Source: Bacteroidota bacterium (GTDB lineage Bacteria > Bacteroidota > Bacteroidia > AKYH767-A > 2013-40CM-41-45). From it: 64,000 nucleotides of DNA. A program made the translations under genes and the position numbers. The notes under the pieces were generated by a model. The model saw only the letters and a list, made by a program, of their open reading frames with translations. It searched no databases and was not told the DNA's origin. Shown here in pieces: positions 9,100-18,910 of the stretch. The DNA lies in NCBI GenBank assembly GCA_031417395.1, contig JANOVM010000057.1:18078-82077 (forward strand). The letters are read 5' to 3'. Within the stretch, counting starts at the first letter, position 1. Every line of letters begins with the position of its first letter.

Positions 9100-9145
9100 T
9101 TTTTGTTGTTTTCTTTAGTGGTTAGTGTTTTTTGATTTTGATATG

Positions 9146-9212
9146 ACAAATGTATATCCTTCATCACATGCCATTATTATATTACTTTGGGAAAGGATTA
9201 TAGAATTTTGGG
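9146..9212 (-). promoter_or_regulatory. promoter plus candidate operator upstream of the esterase gene (copy A of a duplicated bipartite element)
   Basis: In gene sense this reads CCCAAAATTCTATAATCCTTTCCCAAAGTAATATAA - 21 nt - ATACATTTGT. The distal 10-mer contains a TAnnTTTG -7 box. The 36-bp block is 34/36 identical to a second copy at 10898-10933, and both copies share the same 21-nt spacing to the 10-mer. Confidence 0.5.
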
Positions 9213-9230
9213 ATACTTGCATTAAGCGTA

Positions 9231-9265
9231 AAAAAAACTCCGTCGGTTGACGAAGTTTTAAAGAA
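9231..9265 (-). terminator. putative intrinsic terminator downstream of the multicopper oxidase gene
   Basis: Minus-strand reading aacttcgtc-aacc-gacggagtt followed by a T7 run. It lies 18 bp after the MCO stop. Confidence 0.45.
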
Positions 9266-9282
9266 AGCAGATAAAATCAATA

Positions 9283-10608
9283 TTAATGGTGATTCGTATG
9301 CATCATTTCTTTTTCTTCGTAGGACAAAGTGGGATCAATGAGGTCAAAGTTTGCCATCATACCGGCAGCGTGGTGTTCAAGAATATGGCAATGATACATC
9401 CAGGTTCCTGTGCGGTTATCCGGCATCCACGCTATTTTTATCTTGCTCCTTGGCGTTAAATTATAGGTGTCTTTCCACGCTCTGAATTCCGGAGCTTTGC
9501 CATTCTCTTCTAATACCTGGAAAAAGAAGCCATGGAGATGAAATGGGTGATCCATCATACTAACGTTTGAAATTTCCCATATCTGTAATTCTTCGATGTT
9601 TACCGGTTTATCATTGACATGCATGTTGTCATTAACCAGGAAATTCATTCCGTTCTTCAGACTGGGTCCGACAGAAAATTTTATCTTTCTTGTAGCAACA
9701 GCATTCTTCGAAGCAAGGGGTTTGATTTTCCTAAGAGTTTCAGGAATGAAGGCTACGGAAGGTTTGTTTTCTCCTACCTGAACCGTTGCAAATTTTTCCC
9801 GTTTTGCTTTGAGAAAAGTTACACGGTTATAGGGAAGAGATTCTATAGCAAAAGTCTCACCTGCTGTAAAGGGACCAACAGTGATATCTATCCGTTCACC
9901 GGGAGTAATCAATACTTCCGTAACAGTACGCGGATGTTCTAAGAGTCCGCCGTCAGTGCCGATTATTTTAAACTCTTTGCCCTCCAGATGTAGAAGAAAA
10001 TAGCGGGCACTTGATGAATTTATGAAACGCCATCTTTCGGTTTGGGAACCATTCACATTGACTATAGTATTTTCTTTTCCATTTAATAGTAGGGTATTGC
10101 CTTGTCGGCCATCGTGCCTTTCTACGACTCTTGGAATAAACCAACCGGGTTTTGTAAATTCATTGACAATGTTGAGTTTCATGTCATCAATCATAAAAAT
10201 TCTTTCGCCATCTGTAACAACATCCGTTTCGTCTTCGACAATCAAAGCGCCATACATACCTCTTTCCATCTGAACGGTTTCATTGGCATGTGAATGGTAC
10301 CAGAATGTACCTGCATCAGGAACAACAAAACGGTATTCAAAGGTTTCGCCGGGAGCAACAGGTTTCTGAACGCCGTCTGTTCCATCCATTGCTGCAGGAA
10401 GGCATATGCCATGCCAGTGAATGGTTGTTGGCTCATTCAGGTTATTCGTTAACCGGACAATAAGTGTATCGCCCACGTTTGCTCTTAATACAGGGCCGGG
10501 AAGCTGTTTGTTAAATCCCCAGGCTTCAACGGTTTTTCCCGGAGCAATTTCCCAATTAAAAGCACTTGCTTCAAAATTGTATTCTACTATTTTTGATTCG
10601 GATTTCAT
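9283..10608 (-). CDS. multicopper oxidase (laccase/CueO/CopA-like)
   Basis: Four copper-binding motifs are present: HWHG, WYHSH, HPFHLHG and HCHILEHHAAGMMANF. It has the three-cupredoxin-domain size of 441 aa. Confidence 0.9.
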   Translation of the reverse strand: MKSESKIVEYNFEASAFNWEIAPGKTVEAWGFNKQLPGPVLRANVGDTLIVRLTNNLNEPTTIHWHGICLPAAMDGTDGVQKPVAPGETFEYRFVVPDAGTFWYHSHANETVQMERGMYGALIVEDETDVVTDGERIFMIDDMKLNIVNEFTKPGWFIPRVVERHDGRQGNTLLLNGKENTIVNVNGSQTERWRFINSSSARYFLLHLEGKEFKIIGTDGGLLEHPRTVTEVLITPGERIDITVGPFTAGETFAIESLPYNRVTFLKAKREKFATVQVGENKPSVAFIPETLRKIKPLASKNAVATRKIKFSVGPSLKNGMNFLVNDNMHVNDKPVNIEELQIWEISNVSMMDHPFHLHGFFFQVLEENGKAPEFRAWKDTYNLTPRSKIKIAWMPDNRTGTWMYHCHILEHHAAGMMANFDLIDPTLSYEEKEMMHTNHH

Positions 10609-11032: not shown

Positions 11033-11608
11033 TTATACTTTATCAAGCGCTTTACGCTTTACCGTCCCAACTTTTTTAAAGTAAGAGGGTGTAAGTCCGG
11101 TGATTTTCTTGAATTGACTGGAAAGATGCGCTGTACTGCTATAATCAAGTTCAAAAGCAATTTCAGAGAGAGTCTTTTCTCCATAAATGAGTAACTCTTT
11201 AGCTTTTTCAATTCTTTGTTCAATATAAAAATTTTCTATAGTTCTTCCTTCGACTGATGAGAATAAACTGCTAAGATGTGTGTACTCATAATGCAGTTTT
11301 TCAGAAAGGTAGTTTGAAAGGTTTATTTTTTTTTCTTTAGAATCAACTTCGAACCGGGCTTTCTTAATTGCAAGCTGTTTGATTTTTTCAATCAGTCCGC
11401 TCATATGACTGTCGATTAATTCAAAGCCAATACCATTAAGATTTCTTGAAAGGGCAGTTTTCTGTTTTTCATTTAATTCATCCATTAAATGAATCTCACT
11501 AAAAAGAACTTTTTGAAAAGGGATCTTTTCTCTGTTTAGGATTTCTTCTACGGCCAGAACACAGCGATGACAAACCATATTTTTTACAAGTACAATATGT
11601 GAGGTCAT
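11033..11608 (-). CDS. AraC-family transcriptional regulator with an N-terminal HMA-like metal-binding domain
   Basis: The N-terminus IVLVKNMVCHRCVLAVEEIL has an MxCxxC motif in a beta-alpha-beta-beta-alpha-beta-like segment, as in the heavy-metal-associated fold. The C-terminus ...LSEIAFELDYSSTAHLSSQFKKITGLTPSYFKK is an AraC-type HTH. Confidence 0.7.
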   Translation of the reverse strand: MTSHIVLVKNMVCHRCVLAVEEILNREKIPFQKVLFSEIHLMDELNEKQKTALSRNLNGIGFELIDSHMSGLIEKIKQLAIKKARFEVDSKEKKINLSNYLSEKLHYEYTHLSSLFSSVEGRTIENFYIEQRIEKAKELLIYGEKTLSEIAFELDYSSTAHLSSQFKKITGLTPSYFKKVGTVKRKALDKV

Positions 11609-12568: not shown

Positions 12569-13342
12569 AGCACTGCTAACAAAAATAAATTGCAGAAAAA
12601 AAATGATCACCTAAATTTAAGTATAAATCCTTTTTTTTGATCAATTCACCTTAAATACAAAATTGCCAGATTCCCTGGCTGTACGGGGTTTCCTTATAAT
12701 TATTCTACAATCGGTGTGGTTTTGTTATTTCAATTTCAGGTGGGAAAACAACGTACAATATAAATCCTTTGGGCGCATGAGAATAAATACTCTGCCCTTG
12801 GGCTCTTTAAAGTAAAAAGACCAGCATATTTAATCGCCTGTAAACAAGCTTAAGTATGAAAAAAAAGGCTTGCGCCTGTTGTTCGTACGGTTTTCCCTCT
12901 TACCCTGCCGCACATTTCATCATTACCAGCAATAACAATGATGTTTTTAAATAGTCAAAGATTATTTTTCCCTTTCAGCTTAACAATTGCATATAAGCCG
13001 GTTCTTTTATTAAAATAGTTGTCATTGCGAGATAATCTGTATTCACATAACCTGAACCTTTCAAGTTTAAAAAATTAAAATAATACTAATTGTGAAAGAA
13101 AGTATTTTTAAGCTGTTCCGTCGAGCTGGGTCCCAAAAGAAGATCCGGCGACAGCCAGGTACCTGAAGTCTATTACCACATTAGCCGGTTTGATCCAGCA
13201 AGCAAGTTCTATTTATTGTTAGGTCTTAATTATCCCAATCAATCTTTTTTCCATCGTTGGGCGAAGTCATGCGTTTAAGGATGGCATACCACTCTGATTA
13301 TAGATAGACGTTTGTGCAAAAGACTTAGTCAAACAAGAGAGA

Positions 13343-14227
13343 TTAAGAATGAGGCCTTGATGTCTCTCTATAACGATATAAATTTGCTCCGTTATTATTT
13401 ACTCCAACCAAAATTATTTTAATAGTTGAATTTGTGTCCTTTCGGTCTAGACCATAATAATATCGGATGCCCTTGCAATCTGGATCTGAAAAGATCTGTT
13501 CAACTGTATTGTTTCTGCTAAAGTAAGACTCATAATTGGAACAGTTAATATTAAAAATATTTCTGCATTTGAGGTAATCTTTTGATAATGTAATAAGATT
13601 ATTACCTGGATTATTATATATAATATCCTGATTTCCTCCACCATTTATTTTACGATGAGTCACAAGCTTACTAATATATTGATCTAATGTGGTAATATTT
13701 TGAAAACGGTCAAACATATTGTTATTACTCGATTTCTTACAATTTAAAGCTCGTACACCGGGGGTTCCCACACCAGAATTACAGACATCATTGTCTAAAG
13801 CGAGAAAAAAGTTTACTGTCGAATTATCGGAAGGAGGGCAGACTACGGTCCCTTTATCTGAAGTACCACATAAATGAAATTTTATAGCATTATATGATAC
13901 CAAATCAGCCATTTTTAACGTGAAATAATCTATATCCCCATATATAGTTCCACCAAAATATTTTATTTTACCATTAAATTCTATTTGAAAATCCATTATT
14001 AGTTGAGCAGCGTCTTCAGCAGAATATGTATGATCAGGTTCTTTAACTGGGTCGCAATAAATGCATGGATCAGCCACAGTTCCAACCGGTTTATAATTTT
14101 CATTAGAAGAGTCCCGCAGATTGCCAGATGCAGAACTGTCGGTAATATTCCCACTGCTATCGTTAGGTTTTTGATTGCAGCTATAAAAAACAAGAGTAAA
14201 CAATAGTAATCTAAATAAATTTTTCAT
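13343..14227 (-). CDS. secreted/lipoprotein hypothetical protein, Cys-motif family member A
   Basis: Lipoprotein signal (LVFYSC). It has an N-proximal DPCIYCDP motif and a C-terminal DPDCKGIRYYYGLDR...IKIILVGVNNNGANLYRYRETS block. Both are shared with the divergently transcribed paralog at 14537-15358. Confidence 0.55.
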   Translation of the reverse strand: MKNLFRLLLFTLVFYSCNQKPNDSSGNITDSSASGNLRDSSNENYKPVGTVADPCIYCDPVKEPDHTYSAEDAAQLIMDFQIEFNGKIKYFGGTIYGDIDYFTLKMADLVSYNAIKFHLCGTSDKGTVVCPPSDNSTVNFFLALDNDVCNSGVGTPGVRALNCKKSSNNNMFDRFQNITTLDQYISKLVTHRKINGGGNQDIIYNNPGNNLITLSKDYLKCRNIFNINCSNYESYFSRNNTVEQIFSDPDCKGIRYYYGLDRKDTNSTIKIILVGVNNNGANLYRYRETSRPHS

Positions 14228-14536
14228 AATTTTTAAAGTTTAAATTTTGTGTTACAAATAAAGAGACAATGAAACTCAAACAAAAATAATCATATAGTTT
14301 TAAAGTCCAAATGTTTTTACAAATATTTTGAACCTGAATATACTTTTGGCTTTCGTTGACACGTGTTAAAGTAATTGAAGTAAACTTACCACAGAAGGTA
14401 TTTGTGGTAAAAGCATGTTTTAGTATTTAAATCCGATAACTTACTTAAAAAGTTGCCTAATTTGCTTTCAAGATATAATTTCATAAATTTGACAAAGCGT
14501 ATTTTTGAAATTTTATTTTACTAAAACATTTTTTAA

Positions 14537-15358
14537 ATGAGAACTCACAAAAAGCGCTGGTTATTTTTATTAATCGCTTCTGTAATTACAGCAGCTATAT
14601 TTTTTATTGTTATTCCGGATAATCCCTGCGAAGTTTGCGACCCTAATCAAGATCATCATTTTAGTGCAAGCGAATCGGTACCCCTGATTGCTGTCTTTAA
14701 TACCAGGTTTAATATAACTACATATGGCGGAACTATTTTTGGAGTAAAAGACTACTTCGAAAAGGGATTTGATAGCAAGCACCTTCCGCAAGGCGGCTCT
14801 CGTGCATTTAAGTTTCATTTTTGTTCTCCCAAAAGTGGCGCTAGCGATTTTTTTTTAGTTTTTCAAAATGCATATTGTATTAATAACAGACTGATGGATT
14901 TTGAAAATGTTGTACCTTTTTATTTTACCGGAGGAGATTTGACTTTTCCAAAGACAAGGTGCAACTCTTCAAGTTCGGTTGATTGTGTACAAAGAGATGG
15001 CGAAAGCAGACCTTACCCTGATGCAACAAGACCTTTGTCAGATTGGCAGAAAAGCCAAGAATTTAATGGGATTGACCTTCCTGCAGTTAGGGCAGCTTTT
15101 AAGCTGAAAACAATTTTTACCCGGGAATTACAAAAATGCACTGACAATTACGTAGGATATTTTATTTACAATACATCGCTTTTGGATATATTTGGTAATA
15201 AGGATAAGCCAGGTGATCCACCATGTCAGGGAATTCGTTATTATTATGCATATGACAGAGTAAAGAGCACATATAAAATAAGAATAATCTTGGTTGGAGT
15301 AGATGCTAATGGCAGGAATCTTAACACCTGGCGAGAAACGTCTGTACCATTTAATTAA
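14537..15358 (+). CDS. membrane-anchored/secreted hypothetical protein, Cys-motif family member B (paralog of 13343-14227)
   Basis: N-terminal TM anchor. It has NPCEVCDPN and C-terminal PPCQGIRYYYAYDR...IRIILVGVDANGRNLNTWRETS, plus the shared YGGTIFG..DYF and KFHFC blocks. Confidence 0.55.
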   Translation: MRTHKKRWLFLLIASVITAAIFFIVIPDNPCEVCDPNQDHHFSASESVPLIAVFNTRFNITTYGGTIFGVKDYFEKGFDSKHLPQGGSRAFKFHFCSPKSGASDFFLVFQNAYCINNRLMDFENVVPFYFTGGDLTFPKTRCNSSSSVDCVQRDGESRPYPDATRPLSDWQKSQEFNGIDLPAVRAAFKLKTIFTRELQKCTDNYVGYFIYNTSLLDIFGNKDKPGDPPCQGIRYYYAYDRVKSTYKIRIILVGVDANGRNLNTWRETSVPFN

Positions 15359-15478
15359 AAAGGTCAAATATTATTTTCATTTAGTCATAACATAAAATAT
15401 TCTGCTATTTTTGCTGACCATCGGCAGTTTCATTCTTGCATGAATGTTAAACCCCCTTTTATCTATCAGAAAAATTAA

Positions 15479-18400
15479 ATGCAAAAATATTTTAGTCGAC
15501 ATTTTATTGGAATTTATTTTTTATTATTTATTGTTTGTTGTTCTCCTGATCATCAACAATCTTCTGTATACACATCAAAGACAGATTCTATCGTCCCGCC
15601 TGTACGAATTGTCGCCGGAAAACCTGTTGTTATAAAAACCGATACGTGTCCACCTCCTCGTTGTATTGTTATACCGGAAAAACCATTCAATTATCCCACA
15701 AAGATTGCAGGCGTTACCAAATTTATAAAGTTATTACAGCCCATTAAAAAACCTGTTGATTTTTCCATTGCCCTTCAAAATTTTAACACAGACAAAGGCC
15801 TGGCTCTTAGTTCCGTTCTTAGTTCTTGCAAGGATCGTAACGGCAACCTCTGGTTTGGAACCGATGGCGGCGGTGTAAGCAGGTACGATGGTAAATCATT
15901 TACCAATTTTACTTTGGGACATGGACTTGGTCACAATTCTGTTTACTGTATTCATGAAGATAAAAAGGGCAACATCTGGTTCGGTACCAATGGTGGAGGT
16001 TTAAGTAAATATGATGGAAAATCATTTGTCACTTTTACTGTCGCTCAAGGCCTTTCAAGCAATGCTGTTCACTCCTTAATCGAAACGAAAGATAACAGAC
16101 TATGGATTGGTACGGAAAAAGGTGTGAGTATTTATGATGGTAAATCTTTCATTAGGTTTAATGCTTCAACTGAATTGGATAGTTGTGAAGTGGATTGCAT
16201 GACGGAGGATTCAAATGGGACAATTTGGTTTGGCACAAATGAACATGGTGCTTTTAAGTTTACCGGGGATAGTTGTATTCATTTCACCGCCAACAATGGA
16301 CTAGCCGATAATAATGTGAGAAGTATTATTCAGGATAGTTCTATAATCTGGCTGGGTTGCGAATCGGGTCTTGTGAAGTATAAAGATAAATTGTTTTCGA
16401 CTATTACTACAAAGGAAGGATTGAGAGACAATAATATCAATTGTATTCATAAGGATAATCAGCAAAATATCTGGGTAGGCAATTCAGGAGGTATAAACAA
16501 ATATGATGGTCACTCATTCAAAACAATTGCAACTAATGAAAATCTATTGAACAGCGAAGTATACTGCATCACAGAGGATAATTCGGGAAATTTATGGTTT
16601 GGTACGTATGGTGGCGGTTTATTTTTGTATTCCAATTCCGGTTGTACTACCTCAAATAACCTTGCCGGAAATGTTGTCAATAATATTATCGAAGACAAAG
16701 CAGGAAATATATGGTTTGGAACTGACGGAGGCGTAACCAGGAATGACGGAAAAATTTTTACATCATATTCAATCTCTCAAGGGCTTGCAGACAACCGTGT
16801 TTTAAGTATTGCCGAAGACAGTGCAGGCCTTTTGTGGTTTGGCACTTATGGAAGGGGTGTAAGCAGCTATGATGGAAAATGCTTTACTACATTCACTACT
16901 GACAATGGATTAGTGGATAATACTGTGTGGGTTATTACTAAAGATTTGTCAAATAATATCTGGATGGGTACTAACGGGGGTGTCTCGAAGTATAAAAACG
17001 GAGTTTTCACGAATTACAATACAAATACAGGTCTTTCTAACAATAAAATCCGGTGTATTACTCCCGATAATTTTGGAAATATATGGTTTGGAACAGATGG
17101 CGGCGGTGTATGCTATTTTAATGGCAAAACATTTACAAATTTTACTACAAAACAGGGTCTAGCCAATAATTCAATTTACTGCATTACTAAAGATCAAACC
17201 GGAAACTTATGGTTCGGTACTGCAGGAGGTGGCATTAGTATTTTAAGTGTTGACATACTTAATAAGCTTACTTCTTATGAAAATAGAGGTTTAGACAAGT
17301 TTGAGCAAAGGGATCAGATATTTAAAAATTTTACCACTGAAGACGGCCTGGCAAATGATGTCGTATATGATATCGTTGAAAATAAACAGGGTGATGTAAT
17401 TATTGGTACCAATGAAGGCTTTACAGTTCTTAATGGTGGTTATGATTCTATAAAAAAAACAGCTGCAAAAAAAGGGATTACTTACTTGAATCAAAAAACA
17501 GGTTATCCTATAAAAGACATAAATATTAATGCCCTTTATATGGATTCTATAGGAATTATCTGGGCAGGTACCGGTGATAAATTAATACGTTTTGATTTTA
17601 ACTCTATTCTTAAGCCAAATTCAAAGCCTACTGTTGTAATTCAAAACATTAAATTAAATAACCAAAACATCAGCTGGTATGATTTGGAGCGTTCAAAAGG
17701 AAAGAATGAAAGTTTTGAATTGGACAGTTTAACCTTTCCTCCAAATATTACGGAAGAGGCAATTGTTTTTGGCAGCTCTTTAAGTAATGCTAAACGCGAT
17801 TCCATGCGTAAGACATTTGATGGGGTTTTGTTTGATAGTATTAGCCGTTTTTACTATTTACCGATAAATCTGGTTTTACCCTGCATTGATAATAACATTA
17901 CGTTTGATTATGCAGCTATTGAACCTGCCAGACCGTTTCTTGTGAGATATCAGTTCATGCTTGTAGGATTTGATAAAACCTGGAACCCGGTAACGGATAG
18001 AACCCATGCAAGTTTCGGTAATTTGTTTGAAGGTGCTTATACTTTTAAATTAAGAGCCAAAAGTCCCGAAGGGATATGGAGCGATGATATAAGTTATAGT
18101 TTCATTATTCTGCCCCCATGGTATCGTACCTGGTGGGCCTATACAATGTATGTAGTTATATTTTTAGCACTATTTATCGGTTACATAAGATGGCGATTAT
18201 TTGATTTGAAAAGAGAAAAAGAAATACTGGAAGAGAAGGTTGCTCTCCGTACTTCTGAATTAAAGAAGGAAAATGAAAGAGCAGAAAGTCTACTATTAAA
18301 TATTTTACCCCATGAAATAGCCGAAGAACTGAAAGTAACAGGAACTGCATTGCCGAAGGAATTTGAAGAAGTAACAGTATTATTTACTGATTTTAGGAAT

Positions 18401-18910
18401 TTCACTCAGTTGACAGAACAAAGCAATGCGCAGCAATTGGTCAGCCAGATCAATTATTATTACAGCGCATTCGATAGTATAATTTCCAAATATGCAATTG
18501 AAAAAATAAAAACGATTGGAGACAGTTACATGTGTGCCGGCGGACTTCCTGTTGAAAATAAAACCAACCCTCAGGATACAATTATGGCTGCATTGGAAAT
18601 CAGGAATTTTGTTTTAAAAGAAAAGGAAATCAGGCAAAAAACAGGTCAAATATTTTTTGAAATTAGAATTGGCCTTCATACGGGGCCCGTTGTAGCCGGA
18701 ATTGTTGGTGTCAAGAAATATGCTTATGACATTTGGGGCGATACTGTCAACGTAGCTAAACGCATGGAAAGCAGCAGCGAGCCGGGGAAAGTAAATGTTT
18801 CCGGCAGCACATATGAATTGGTAAAAGATAAATTTAAATTTTCTTACCGCGGAAAGGTTCAGATAAAAAACAAAAACGATCTGGACATGTATTTTGTGGA
18901 TAATATGTAA
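15479..18910 (+). CDS. sensor protein: periplasmic two-component-regulator propeller repeats, single TM helix, coiled coil and a class III adenylate/guanylate cyclase domain
   Basis: About 14 repeats of the type GL..N.V..I.EDK.GNIWFGT.GGGLS.YDG.SF (Reg_prop). TM helix WWAYTMYVVIFLALFIGYI. The cyclase motifs VLFTDFRNFT, IKTIGDSYMCAGGLP and YDIWGDTVNVAKRMES are present, including both metal-binding Asp residues. Confidence 0.8.
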   Translation: MQKYFSRHFIGIYFLLFIVCCSPDHQQSSVYTSKTDSIVPPVRIVAGKPVVIKTDTCPPPRCIVIPEKPFNYPTKIAGVTKFIKLLQPIKKPVDFSIALQNFNTDKGLALSSVLSSCKDRNGNLWFGTDGGGVSRYDGKSFTNFTLGHGLGHNSVYCIHEDKKGNIWFGTNGGGLSKYDGKSFVTFTVAQGLSSNAVHSLIETKDNRLWIGTEKGVSIYDGKSFIRFNASTELDSCEVDCMTEDSNGTIWFGTNEHGAFKFTGDSCIHFTANNGLADNNVRSIIQDSSIIWLGCESGLVKYKDKLFSTITTKEGLRDNNINCIHKDNQQNIWVGNSGGINKYDGHSFKTIATNENLLNSEVYCITEDNSGNLWFGTYGGGLFLYSNSGCTTSNNLAGNVVNNIIEDKAGNIWFGTDGGVTRNDGKIFTSYSISQGLADNRVLSIAEDSAGLLWFGTYGRGVSSYDGKCFTTFTTDNGLVDNTVWVITKDLSNNIWMGTNGGVSKYKNGVFTNYNTNTGLSNNKIRCITPDNFGNIWFGTDGGGVCYFNGKTFTNFTTKQGLANNSIYCITKDQTGNLWFGTAGGGISILSVDILNKLTSYENRGLDKFEQRDQIFKNFTTEDGLANDVVYDIVENKQGDVIIGTNEGFTVLNGGYDSIKKTAAKKGITYLNQKTGYPIKDININALYMDSIGIIWAGTGDKLIRFDFNSILKPNSKPTVVIQNIKLNNQNISWYDLERSKGKNESFELDSLTFPPNITEEAIVFGSSLSNAKRDSMRKTFDGVLFDSISRFYYLPINLVLPCIDNNITFDYAAIEPARPFLVRYQFMLVGFDKTWNPVTDRTHASFGNLFEGAYTFKLRAKSPEGIWSDDISYSFIILPPWYRTWWAYTMYVVIFLALFIGYIRWRLFDLKREKEILEEKVALRTSELKKENERAESLLLNILPHEIAEELKVTGTALPKEFEEVTVLFTDFRNFTQLTEQSNAQQLVSQINYYYSAFDSIISKYAIEKIKTIGDSYMCAGGLPVENKTNPQDTIMAALEIRNFVLKEKEIRQKTGQIFFEIRIGLHTGPVVAGIVGVKKYAYDIWGDTVNVAKRMESSSEPGKVNVSGSTYELVKDKFKFSYRGKVQIKNKNDLDMYFVDNM

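Follow-up and report, generated by a model that had tools for sequence, protein, structure and literature searches.

The present analysis concerns a pair of genes in a 64,000-nucleotide stretch of DNA from a Bacteroidota bacterium (assembly GCA_031417395.1, contig JANOVM010000057.1, positions 18,078 to 82,077 of the forward strand). The whole stretch is referred to as the window. The two genes are located between positions 13343 and 15358, encode paralogous proteins of 294 and 273 amino acids (aa), and face away from each other upstream of a gene for a sensor adenylate cyclase. The main features, with the open reading frames (ORFs) scored by a family profile hidden Markov model (HMM) or by Pfam, are the following:

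13343–14227, minus strand: distal paralog, 294 aa, probable lipoprotein (ORF; family HMM E=1e-66)
14228–14536: divergent intergenic region, AT-rich, 309 bp (from the sequence)
14537–15358, plus strand: sensor-proximal paralog (P0001), 273 aa, with an N-terminal membrane anchor (ORF; family HMM E=3e-59)
15479–18910, plus strand: sensor adenylate cyclase, 1143 aa, with 12 Reg_prop repeats, Y_Y_Y and Guanylate_cyc (Pfam, E=5.7e-54 for the cyclase domain)

A preliminary description of this DNA had placed two ORFs at these coordinates, had called their products paralogs and had put a 309-bp gap between the two, with a sensor adenylate cyclase downstream, all of which was borne out. In the BLASTP comparison the two proteins were 31% identical over 268 columns (88.6 bits, E=3e-25), and their likeness is therefore far beyond chance. 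Three blocks are shared by both paralogs: (D/N)PC(I/E)(Y/V)CDP; (Y/F)GGTI(Y/F)G..DYF together with KFH(L/F)C; and DP(D/P)C(K/Q)GIRYYY...I(K/R)IILVGV(N/D).NG.NL..(Y/W)RETS.P. All the blocks proposed earlier are thus present, but the register written as 'DR....KI.IILVGV' is one residue off for one of the proteins. The N-proximal CxxC pair is formed by C55 and C58 in the 294-aa protein and by C31 and C34 in the 273-aa protein. In the 294-aa protein, two alpha/beta units follow each other in tandem, and the GIRYYY / IILVGV / RETS core is at the C-terminus. Both window proteins were positive for the traits of the family, i.e., two tandem alpha-beta-alpha-beta-beta-beta units, the core C.GIRYY[FY]G.D ... 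IR.ILVGVD..G.NL...RE.S.P and an N-proximal CxxC followed by H.I. The sequence of the locus recurs, 99.9–100% identical, in the NCBI metagenome-assembled genome (MAG) GCA_031387945.1 and in five Logan assemblies (SRR202171xx/SRR202172xx).

The gene neighbourhoods were compared by starting from the family members and then reading the gene downstream of each. At all seven loci with a visible downstream gene (the window, L007, L011, L018, L008/L009, L012/L013 and L014), a family member was immediately followed, in the same orientation, by a gene for an orthologous Reg_prop sensor. The cyclase domain was confirmed wherever the C-terminus of the sensor is on the contig, which is the case in the window, L007, L011 and L018. 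The pairs outside the window are listed below:

L007 (GCA_016714535.1): P0003, followed after 17 bp by a Reg_prop/Y_Y_Y/cyclase sensor split into 186 and 931 aa
L011: P0007, followed after 9 bp by a Reg_prop/Y_Y_Y/cyclase sensor of 1136 aa
L018 (MAG VAR_35_metabat_555): a 289-aa homolog, followed after 68 bp by a Reg_prop/Y_Y_Y/cyclase sensor of 1107 aa
L012/L013: P0006, followed after 29 bp by a Reg_prop protein running off the contig
L008/L009: P0004, followed after 68 bp by a fragment with the conserved sensor start GLALSS...GNLWFGTD
L014: P0010, followed after 87 bp by the fragment AGKPFIVKIDTC, which matches AGKPVVIKTDTC of the window sensor

The association with the cyclase that had been noted in the window is therefore conserved in the six other loci, with spacers of 9–87 bp compared with 120 bp in the window. 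The layout of the window is repeated in L011, where the lipoprotein P0008 is divergent from P0007 and P0007 directly precedes the cyclase. The flanking genes vary, being methyltransferase and TPR genes in the window, MnmA and response regulator genes in L007, and helicase and MBOAT genes in L018. The sensors are 52–55% identical across the loci and the family proteins about 30%. Because the flanks differ and the sequences have diverged to this extent, the pairing is kept by selection and not by recent shared ancestry. With an alignment of four family sequences as the query, one genome locus (L018) was found, and no locus was obtained with it from the Joint Genome Institute (JGI) metagenomes.

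The sensor of the window consists of an N-terminal signal with a Cys, a double Reg_prop beta-propeller with Y_Y_Y, one transmembrane (TM) segment at about residues 885–908, a coiled linker and a class III cyclase domain. The propeller part comprises about 850 residues and is predicted to be periplasmic. Class III cyclases bind metal through two Asp residues, define the substrate by a Lys and an Asp, and use an Asn and an Arg for the transition state, the Lys/Asp pair being typical of the ATP-specific enzymes. All six canonical residues are present in the window sensor (D971, K1011, D1015, D1084, N1091 and R1095) and are invariant across four orthologs that are 52–55% identical. An N-terminal DTCPPxxC motif was observed in the sensors of the window (15479–15700), L011 (3350–3497, minus strand) and L014 (1465–1614), and it is absent from those of L007, L008/L009 and L012/L013. 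The motif sits just after the lipoprotein-like Cys signal and resembles the D.S.PCPxYC tail of the distant single-unit relatives described below, a tail that has been lost from the family of the window.

A profile search added single-unit proteins of 100–165 aa and two-unit proteins of about 260 aa to the family. The signature of this wider superfamily is G.EGDPI.L..A..W..NYR...AHFFG..I...IL...C.GIR.YYA.D...L.LVGVD..G.NLL...D.S.PCPxYC. The D.S.PCPxYC tail is absent from the window proteins, which end at RETSVPFN and RETSRPHS, where the tail would begin. Two superfamily members directly precede genes whose products are a 6-7-TM protein not matched in Pfam, a kinase of the HisKA_3 type and a Response_reg-GerE regulator. 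In a metagenome scan with the superfamily alignment, 75 loci (L019–L093) were found. A locus was counted as informative with at least 700 nt downstream (63 of the 75), and the neighbour had to start within 1.5 kb. A multi-TM protein and/or a kinase was encoded downstream on the same strand in 62 of the 63 informative loci. Taken with the Reg_prop cyclases and with the receiver-cyclase of one variant locus (below), these kinase contexts indicate that a membrane signal transducer is the constant neighbour of the unit.

The typical arrangement, on contigs resembling Bacteroidota, is a conserved four-gene cassette (L019–L093; L016:6001–8576; L017:6001–8962), which encodes a unit protein of about 100–165 aa with or without a lipoprotein signal, a 6-7-TM protein of about 220 aa, a 1-TM protein with HisKA_3 and HATPase_c, and a Response_reg + GerE protein. 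Neither the unit protein nor the 6-7-TM protein of the cassette was found in Pfam or NCBIfam. In the variant at L039:4953–7101, a Response_reg + Guanylate_cyc protein takes the place of the kinase and the regulator behind a unit protein without a signal and a multi-TM protein, and so the superfamily is tied to a cyclase output a second time. Two further contexts were observed among the family members and are not counted among the seven loci above. At L015:3116–4800, two members of 268 and 291 aa are encoded in tandem on one strand, downstream of a protein with type IX secretion system (T9SS) sorting and of a 483-aa protein without a Pfam match; no further complete gene follows on the contig. 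The more distant member P0013 (321 aa) is located between two proteins of 221 and 253 aa without Pfam matches, downstream of a C-terminal fragment of a SpoIIE-type phosphatase, and through this context a third type of signalling output may be connected with the family.

The predicted export signals of the two window proteins are of different types. The 294-aa protein has the N-terminal signal MKNLFRLLLFTLVFYSC ending in FYSC, followed by a linker of about 35 residues rich in S, N and D; the column of its final Cys holds a Cys in 9 of the 12 aligned homologs. P0008 of L011 has a similar Cys-ended signal and S/N/D-rich stretch of about 35 residues. Lipoproteins reaching across the periplasm typically have tethers of this kind. 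The 273-aa protein has a single hydrophobic segment at residues 8–26, preceded by R/K residues as in a positive-inside anchor. Sec or lipoprotein signals were predicted in most family members, and P0005 combines a signal with a C-terminal TM anchor. The tether, the anchors and the signals would therefore place the folded heads, probably on the periplasmic side, in the compartment of the sensor propellers.

The structure of the 273-aa protein was modelled on the family alignment with AlphaFold2 (AF2), resulting in a predicted local distance difference test score (pLDDT) of 85.4 and a predicted template modelling score (pTM) of 0.82. The model consists of an N-terminal helix, corresponding to the anchor, and two alpha-beta-alpha-beta-beta-beta units at residues ~40–131 and 175–270, joined by a linker modelled with less confidence. 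In the order of the modelled elements, H.I..A..LI..F forms the first helix, GGTI strand 1, DYF a short helix, KFHFC strand 2 and FFL.F strand 3, while in the second unit GIRYYY forms strand 2', IRIILVGV strand 3' and WRETS strand 4'. Every conserved motif is thus located on a core element, and the motifs are therefore taken as the structural skeleton, with no obvious catalytic site. With hhalign, the C-terminal half matched the alignment of the single-unit superfamily with a probability of 98.8% (E=4.5e-17); the match of the N-terminal half was weaker (87.5%, E=3.6e-6) and in a matching register. The direct comparison of the two halves was not significant (E=0.03), though the register was the same. 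These comparisons support the view that each window protein arose by an ancient tandem duplication of an alpha/beta unit of about 100 aa.

In a neighbour-joining tree, P0001 was the sister of P0010, another sensor-proximal protein, at a bootstrap support of 98%, and not of its own paralog in the window; the deeper branches were not resolved by the tree. The duplication that produced the two genes is therefore old, and both copies have been retained. The close family has about six conserved Cys columns: C34 is present in 15 of the 15 aligned members, C114 in 14 of 15, C31 and C96 in 11 of 15 each, and two columns near C.GIRYY in 13 of 18 and 13 of 19. Some of these cysteines may be joined by disulfide bonds. 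A thioredoxin-like or Dsb assignment was considered on account of the CxxC and was rejected, the predicted element order being alpha-beta-alpha-beta-beta-beta twice over and not beta-alpha-beta-alpha-beta-beta-alpha. The only thioredoxin-like match in the PDB was insignificant (E=0.16), and no Pfam thioredoxin or DSBA match was obtained. Matches to the DNA sliding-clamp fold (UL44, gp45, PCNA, 9-1-1) were read as a common repeated helix-plus-sheet topology, not as homology.

The database searches agree with the earlier statement that no known domain could be assigned to the proteins. For the two window proteins Pfam gave no match at E<=1, and among 31 aligned family members no consistent Pfam match was detected, the best (E~0.01) each occurring in one member only. 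NCBIfam returned only a 14-bit noise match against a cut-off of 400, and PADLOC returned no match for the window proteins. Profile searches found nothing significant among the PDB sequences (best E=0.032 and 0.28), and Foldseek found no match at E<=1e-3, with TM-scores of about 0.15. Sixteen single-unit relatives were likewise unmatched in Pfam and NCBIfam. When each protein alone was used in a word-indexed search of 5.8 billion clusters, only the proteins themselves were retrieved. The two-paralog profile, run exhaustively with HMMER against 1.84 billion representatives, retrieved 32 proteins at E<=1e-3, 12 of them at E<=1e-10; most of the retrieved proteins are 240–300 aa in length. The homologs come from sources labelled 'Bacteroidetes/Bacteroidota bacterium'. 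P0003 is labelled 'hypothetical protein' in its source record, and the named superfamily matches are labelled likewise. Both the family, which is rare, and the broader unit of about 100 aa appear to be undescribed. Of the two outcomes that would have spoken against the preliminary description, placement in a well-characterised family and a cyclase association confined to this genome, neither was obtained.

On the basis of the genomic context, the predicted signals and the family comparison, we lean, with some reserve, towards the reading that the window proteins are envelope accessory proteins, co-sensors or modulators, of the adjacent Reg_prop/Y_Y_Y adenylate cyclase. The preliminary description had listed a signalling accessory among several functions, and this is the one that the observations favour. 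According to the proposed mechanism, the 273-aa protein would be held in the inner membrane by its N-terminal anchor and the 294-aa lipoprotein would extend on its flexible tether of about 35 residues. In both, the same two-lobed alpha/beta head would be exposed to the periplasm, beside the double beta-propeller of the sensor. The heads could bind the propeller/Y_Y_Y module directly, or they could bind and present a ligand or an envelope component. Either action would shift the conformation of the sensor dimer and hence the cAMP synthesis by the cytoplasmic cyclase domain. The heads might also report on the state of the envelope. An accessory role fits because the signals of most members match the membrane side of the Reg_prop/Y_Y_Y part, which is followed by one TM segment before the cyclase. 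We infer a physical interaction with the sensor, the effect of which could be activation or inhibition.

Sensors that have an accessory protein of their own are a known kind of system; such a system is not known for Reg_prop cyclases, on which the literature search found nothing specific. In LiaFSR, a kinase is controlled by a separately encoded membrane accessory protein. The operon of the wider superfamily has the same parts list as such accessory-controlled envelope sensors, LiaF-LiaS and WalH-WalI-WalK, but homology was detected to none of LiaF, WalH and WalI, and these belong to another phylum, the superfamily being found in Bacteroidota; the comparison covers the distant relatives and not the window cyclase system directly. 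The accessory proteins of kinases, including WalH/WalI, have been reviewed (PMC8534201). QseG is an accessory lipoprotein which is encoded with the sensor QseE, binds it and activates it (PMC12691602). The QseG-QseE and NlpE-CpxA systems resemble the window in having a lipoprotein in the sensor cluster, with a flexible tether and a folded head, for which an action on the sensor's periplasmic part is known or, in the window, proposed (PMC12691602; PMC6538781). They differ from it in that no sequence or fold similarity of QseG or NlpE to the window proteins was detected, and in that the partner in the window is a class III adenylate cyclase with Reg_prop/Y_Y_Y and not a histidine kinase. Moreover, the window has two putative paralogous partners, one of them membrane-anchored. 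On the sensor side, the nearest comparison is the Bacteroides hybrid two-component sensor BT4663 (PDB 4A2L, 4A2M): the window sensor has the same module of 12 Reg_prop repeats and Y_Y_Y followed by one TM segment, but BT4663 continues with kinase, receiver and AraC domains where the window has an adenylate cyclase output. BT4663 signals by a scissor-like movement of the dimer (PMC8534201).

Several observations weigh against the accessory role. The argument for it is guilt by association. Of the six loci with a visible upstream gene, only two (the window and L011) have the divergent lipoprotein copy, and it is absent in L007, L012/L013, L014 and L018. The term 'secreted' used in the preliminary description fits the predicted signal or anchor in both window proteins and in most relatives, but not P0007 and P0009, the sensor-proximal type of L011, which have no signal peptide; the stop-to-stop ORF of P0007 in L011 is too short for any signal. 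Many superfamily members of about 105 aa also lack an export signal. Because of these signal-less proteins, the unit may act in the cytoplasm in some systems, which is a poor fit to a purely periplasmic partner model. The ligand of BT4663 is reportedly an oligosaccharide that is bound directly. BT4663 is the only structurally studied Reg_prop/Y_Y_Y sensor, and no protein partner is listed with its periplasmic structures (PMC8534201). A sensor of this kind thus does not require a partner protein.

Alternatively, the proteins could be independent envelope proteins, serving in binding, adhesion or CxxC-based redox or metal handling, that are co-expressed with the cyclase or controlled by it without contact; the gene neighbourhood would then come from co-regulation or a common pathway and not from a sensor complex. 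We place this on the unlikely side, although the first domain opens with a conserved CxxC (C34 in 15/15, C31 in 11/15) among about six Cys columns, genes for a multicopper oxidase and for a putative metal-responsive regulator of the AraC type are found in the window, and the divergent lipoprotein copy lies outside the sensor transcript. The copper genes are not conserved beside the homologs elsewhere, however, and neither the element order nor the PDB match mentioned above (E=0.16) agrees with a thioredoxin fold. The tight same-strand adjacency also survives a change of the sensor (Reg_prop or multi-TM) and of the output (cyclase or kinase), and such persistence is explained more easily by a direct partnership than by a shared regulon. 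A toxin/immunity-like or defence pair, another function listed earlier, found no support, and together with a chance adjacency to the cyclase it is regarded as extremely improbable. The divergent pair of small exported proteins without an assigned function would be in line with it, but toxin and immunity partners are not paralogs of each other as these proteins are, no PADLOC match and no enzymatic or toxin domain was detected, and most loci have a single copy. Chance is difficult to reconcile with a sensor neighbour that recurs in 7/7 loci despite otherwise different flanks.

The proteins could also be the cognate proteinaceous signal, or its precursor, released from the envelope and sensed by the adjacent receptor, with a logic like that of peptide-pheromone/kinase cassettes. 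The order of small exported protein, membrane receptor and output is nearly invariant (62/63 loci), and the family proteins diverge faster (about 30% identity) than the sensors (52–55%), as specificity-determining ligands do. The conserved Cys tail of the single-unit relatives, D.S.PCPxYC...LNS, could be a processed peptide. We nevertheless consider this quite improbable: in the window proteins that tail is missing and the sequence stops at RETSxP, the predicted membrane or lipid anchors speak against free proteins, and the motifs lie on the core of a folded protein of two 100-aa domains, unlike a leader-plus-core precursor. Furthermore, no conserved gene for a processing protease or exporter adjoins them.

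To our knowledge, cAMP signalling in Bacteroidota has barely been studied, and we know of no established inputs of Reg_prop/Y_Y_Y sensors outside the glycan-utilisation systems. A dedicated adjacent partner family, as in the accessory reading, would provide a concrete handle on the input of the Reg_prop cyclases. The recurrence in 62/63 loci suggests that an entire domain superfamily, so far without annotation, is linked to envelope signal transduction; it merits definition in the domain databases, where all its members now read 'hypothetical protein'. A further-reaching proposal, which we think has a small chance of being correct, is that the unit of about 100 aa marks a new Bacteroidota-centred signalling module, in which an exported or anchored protein forms the obligatory input of the adjacent membrane transducer, be it a Reg_prop cyclase, a multi-TM/HisKA_3 kinase or a receiver-cyclase; in its strongest form, the fast-evolving proteins or Cys peptides cut from them would be self-produced signals. 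Should this form be true, it would amount to a new protein-based communication, between cells or about the state of the envelope, that feeds into cAMP.

The minor features of the locus are as follows:

14386–14410: perfect 8-bp inverted repeat TTACCACA-N9-TGTGGTAA in the middle of the intergenic region (repeat search)
14848–14856, plus strand: T9 run within the 273-aa gene, codons GAT TTT TTT TTA (D-F-F-L)
15359–15478: spacer of 120 bp separating the proximal paralog from the sensor gene, with one weak terminator-like hairpin at 15411–15427

The T9 tract had been reported earlier and does exist in the coding sequence, but its position is 2 nt off the previously given 14846–14854. Its Phe-Phe-Leu is identical in both paralogs (F105, F106 and L107), and the tract was unchanged in 6/6 independent assemblies carrying the 273-aa gene. 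Because of this invariance there is no sign of phase variation or slippage switching, and phase variation was rejected in favour of an ordinary conserved FFL codon run. Both promoters are presumably located in the intergenic region, where the inverted repeat could be a candidate binding site of a regulator. An operator shared by the divergent intergenic regions was rejected, as the half-sites TTACCACA and TGTGGTAA were not seen in the intergenic sequence of L011. A scan for sigma-70-type promoters gave nothing above the shuffled expectation, and terminator-like sites were no commoner than in shuffled sequences, both scans being of doubtful relevance to Bacteroidota promoters.

Near the pair, a multicopper oxidase gene (9283–10608, minus strand) adjoins a gene for an AraC-type regulator (11033–11608, minus strand), the N-terminus of which reads like a heavy-metal-associated CxxC domain (MVCHRC). 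The two genes are probably a copper-response pair. A link of the paralogs to these copper genes was rejected, since the copper genes are absent beside the homologs elsewhere. The 774-bp stretch from the methyltransferase gene to the 294-aa gene (12569–13342) contains no ORF longer than 50 aa; a third, decayed paralog in it was rejected by tblastn, and no Rfam match to a non-coding RNA was found in the region including this stretch. T9SS-type sorting domains are encoded nearby in the window and, together with the source labels of the homologs, mark the organism as an uncultured member of Bacteroidota. The 150 bp at 9119–9268 of the window are missing from the contig of GCA_031387945.1, and the identity of the two sequences is 99.1% upstream of this gap and 99.9% downstream. 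The difference suggests a strain-level indel or a recombination boundary.

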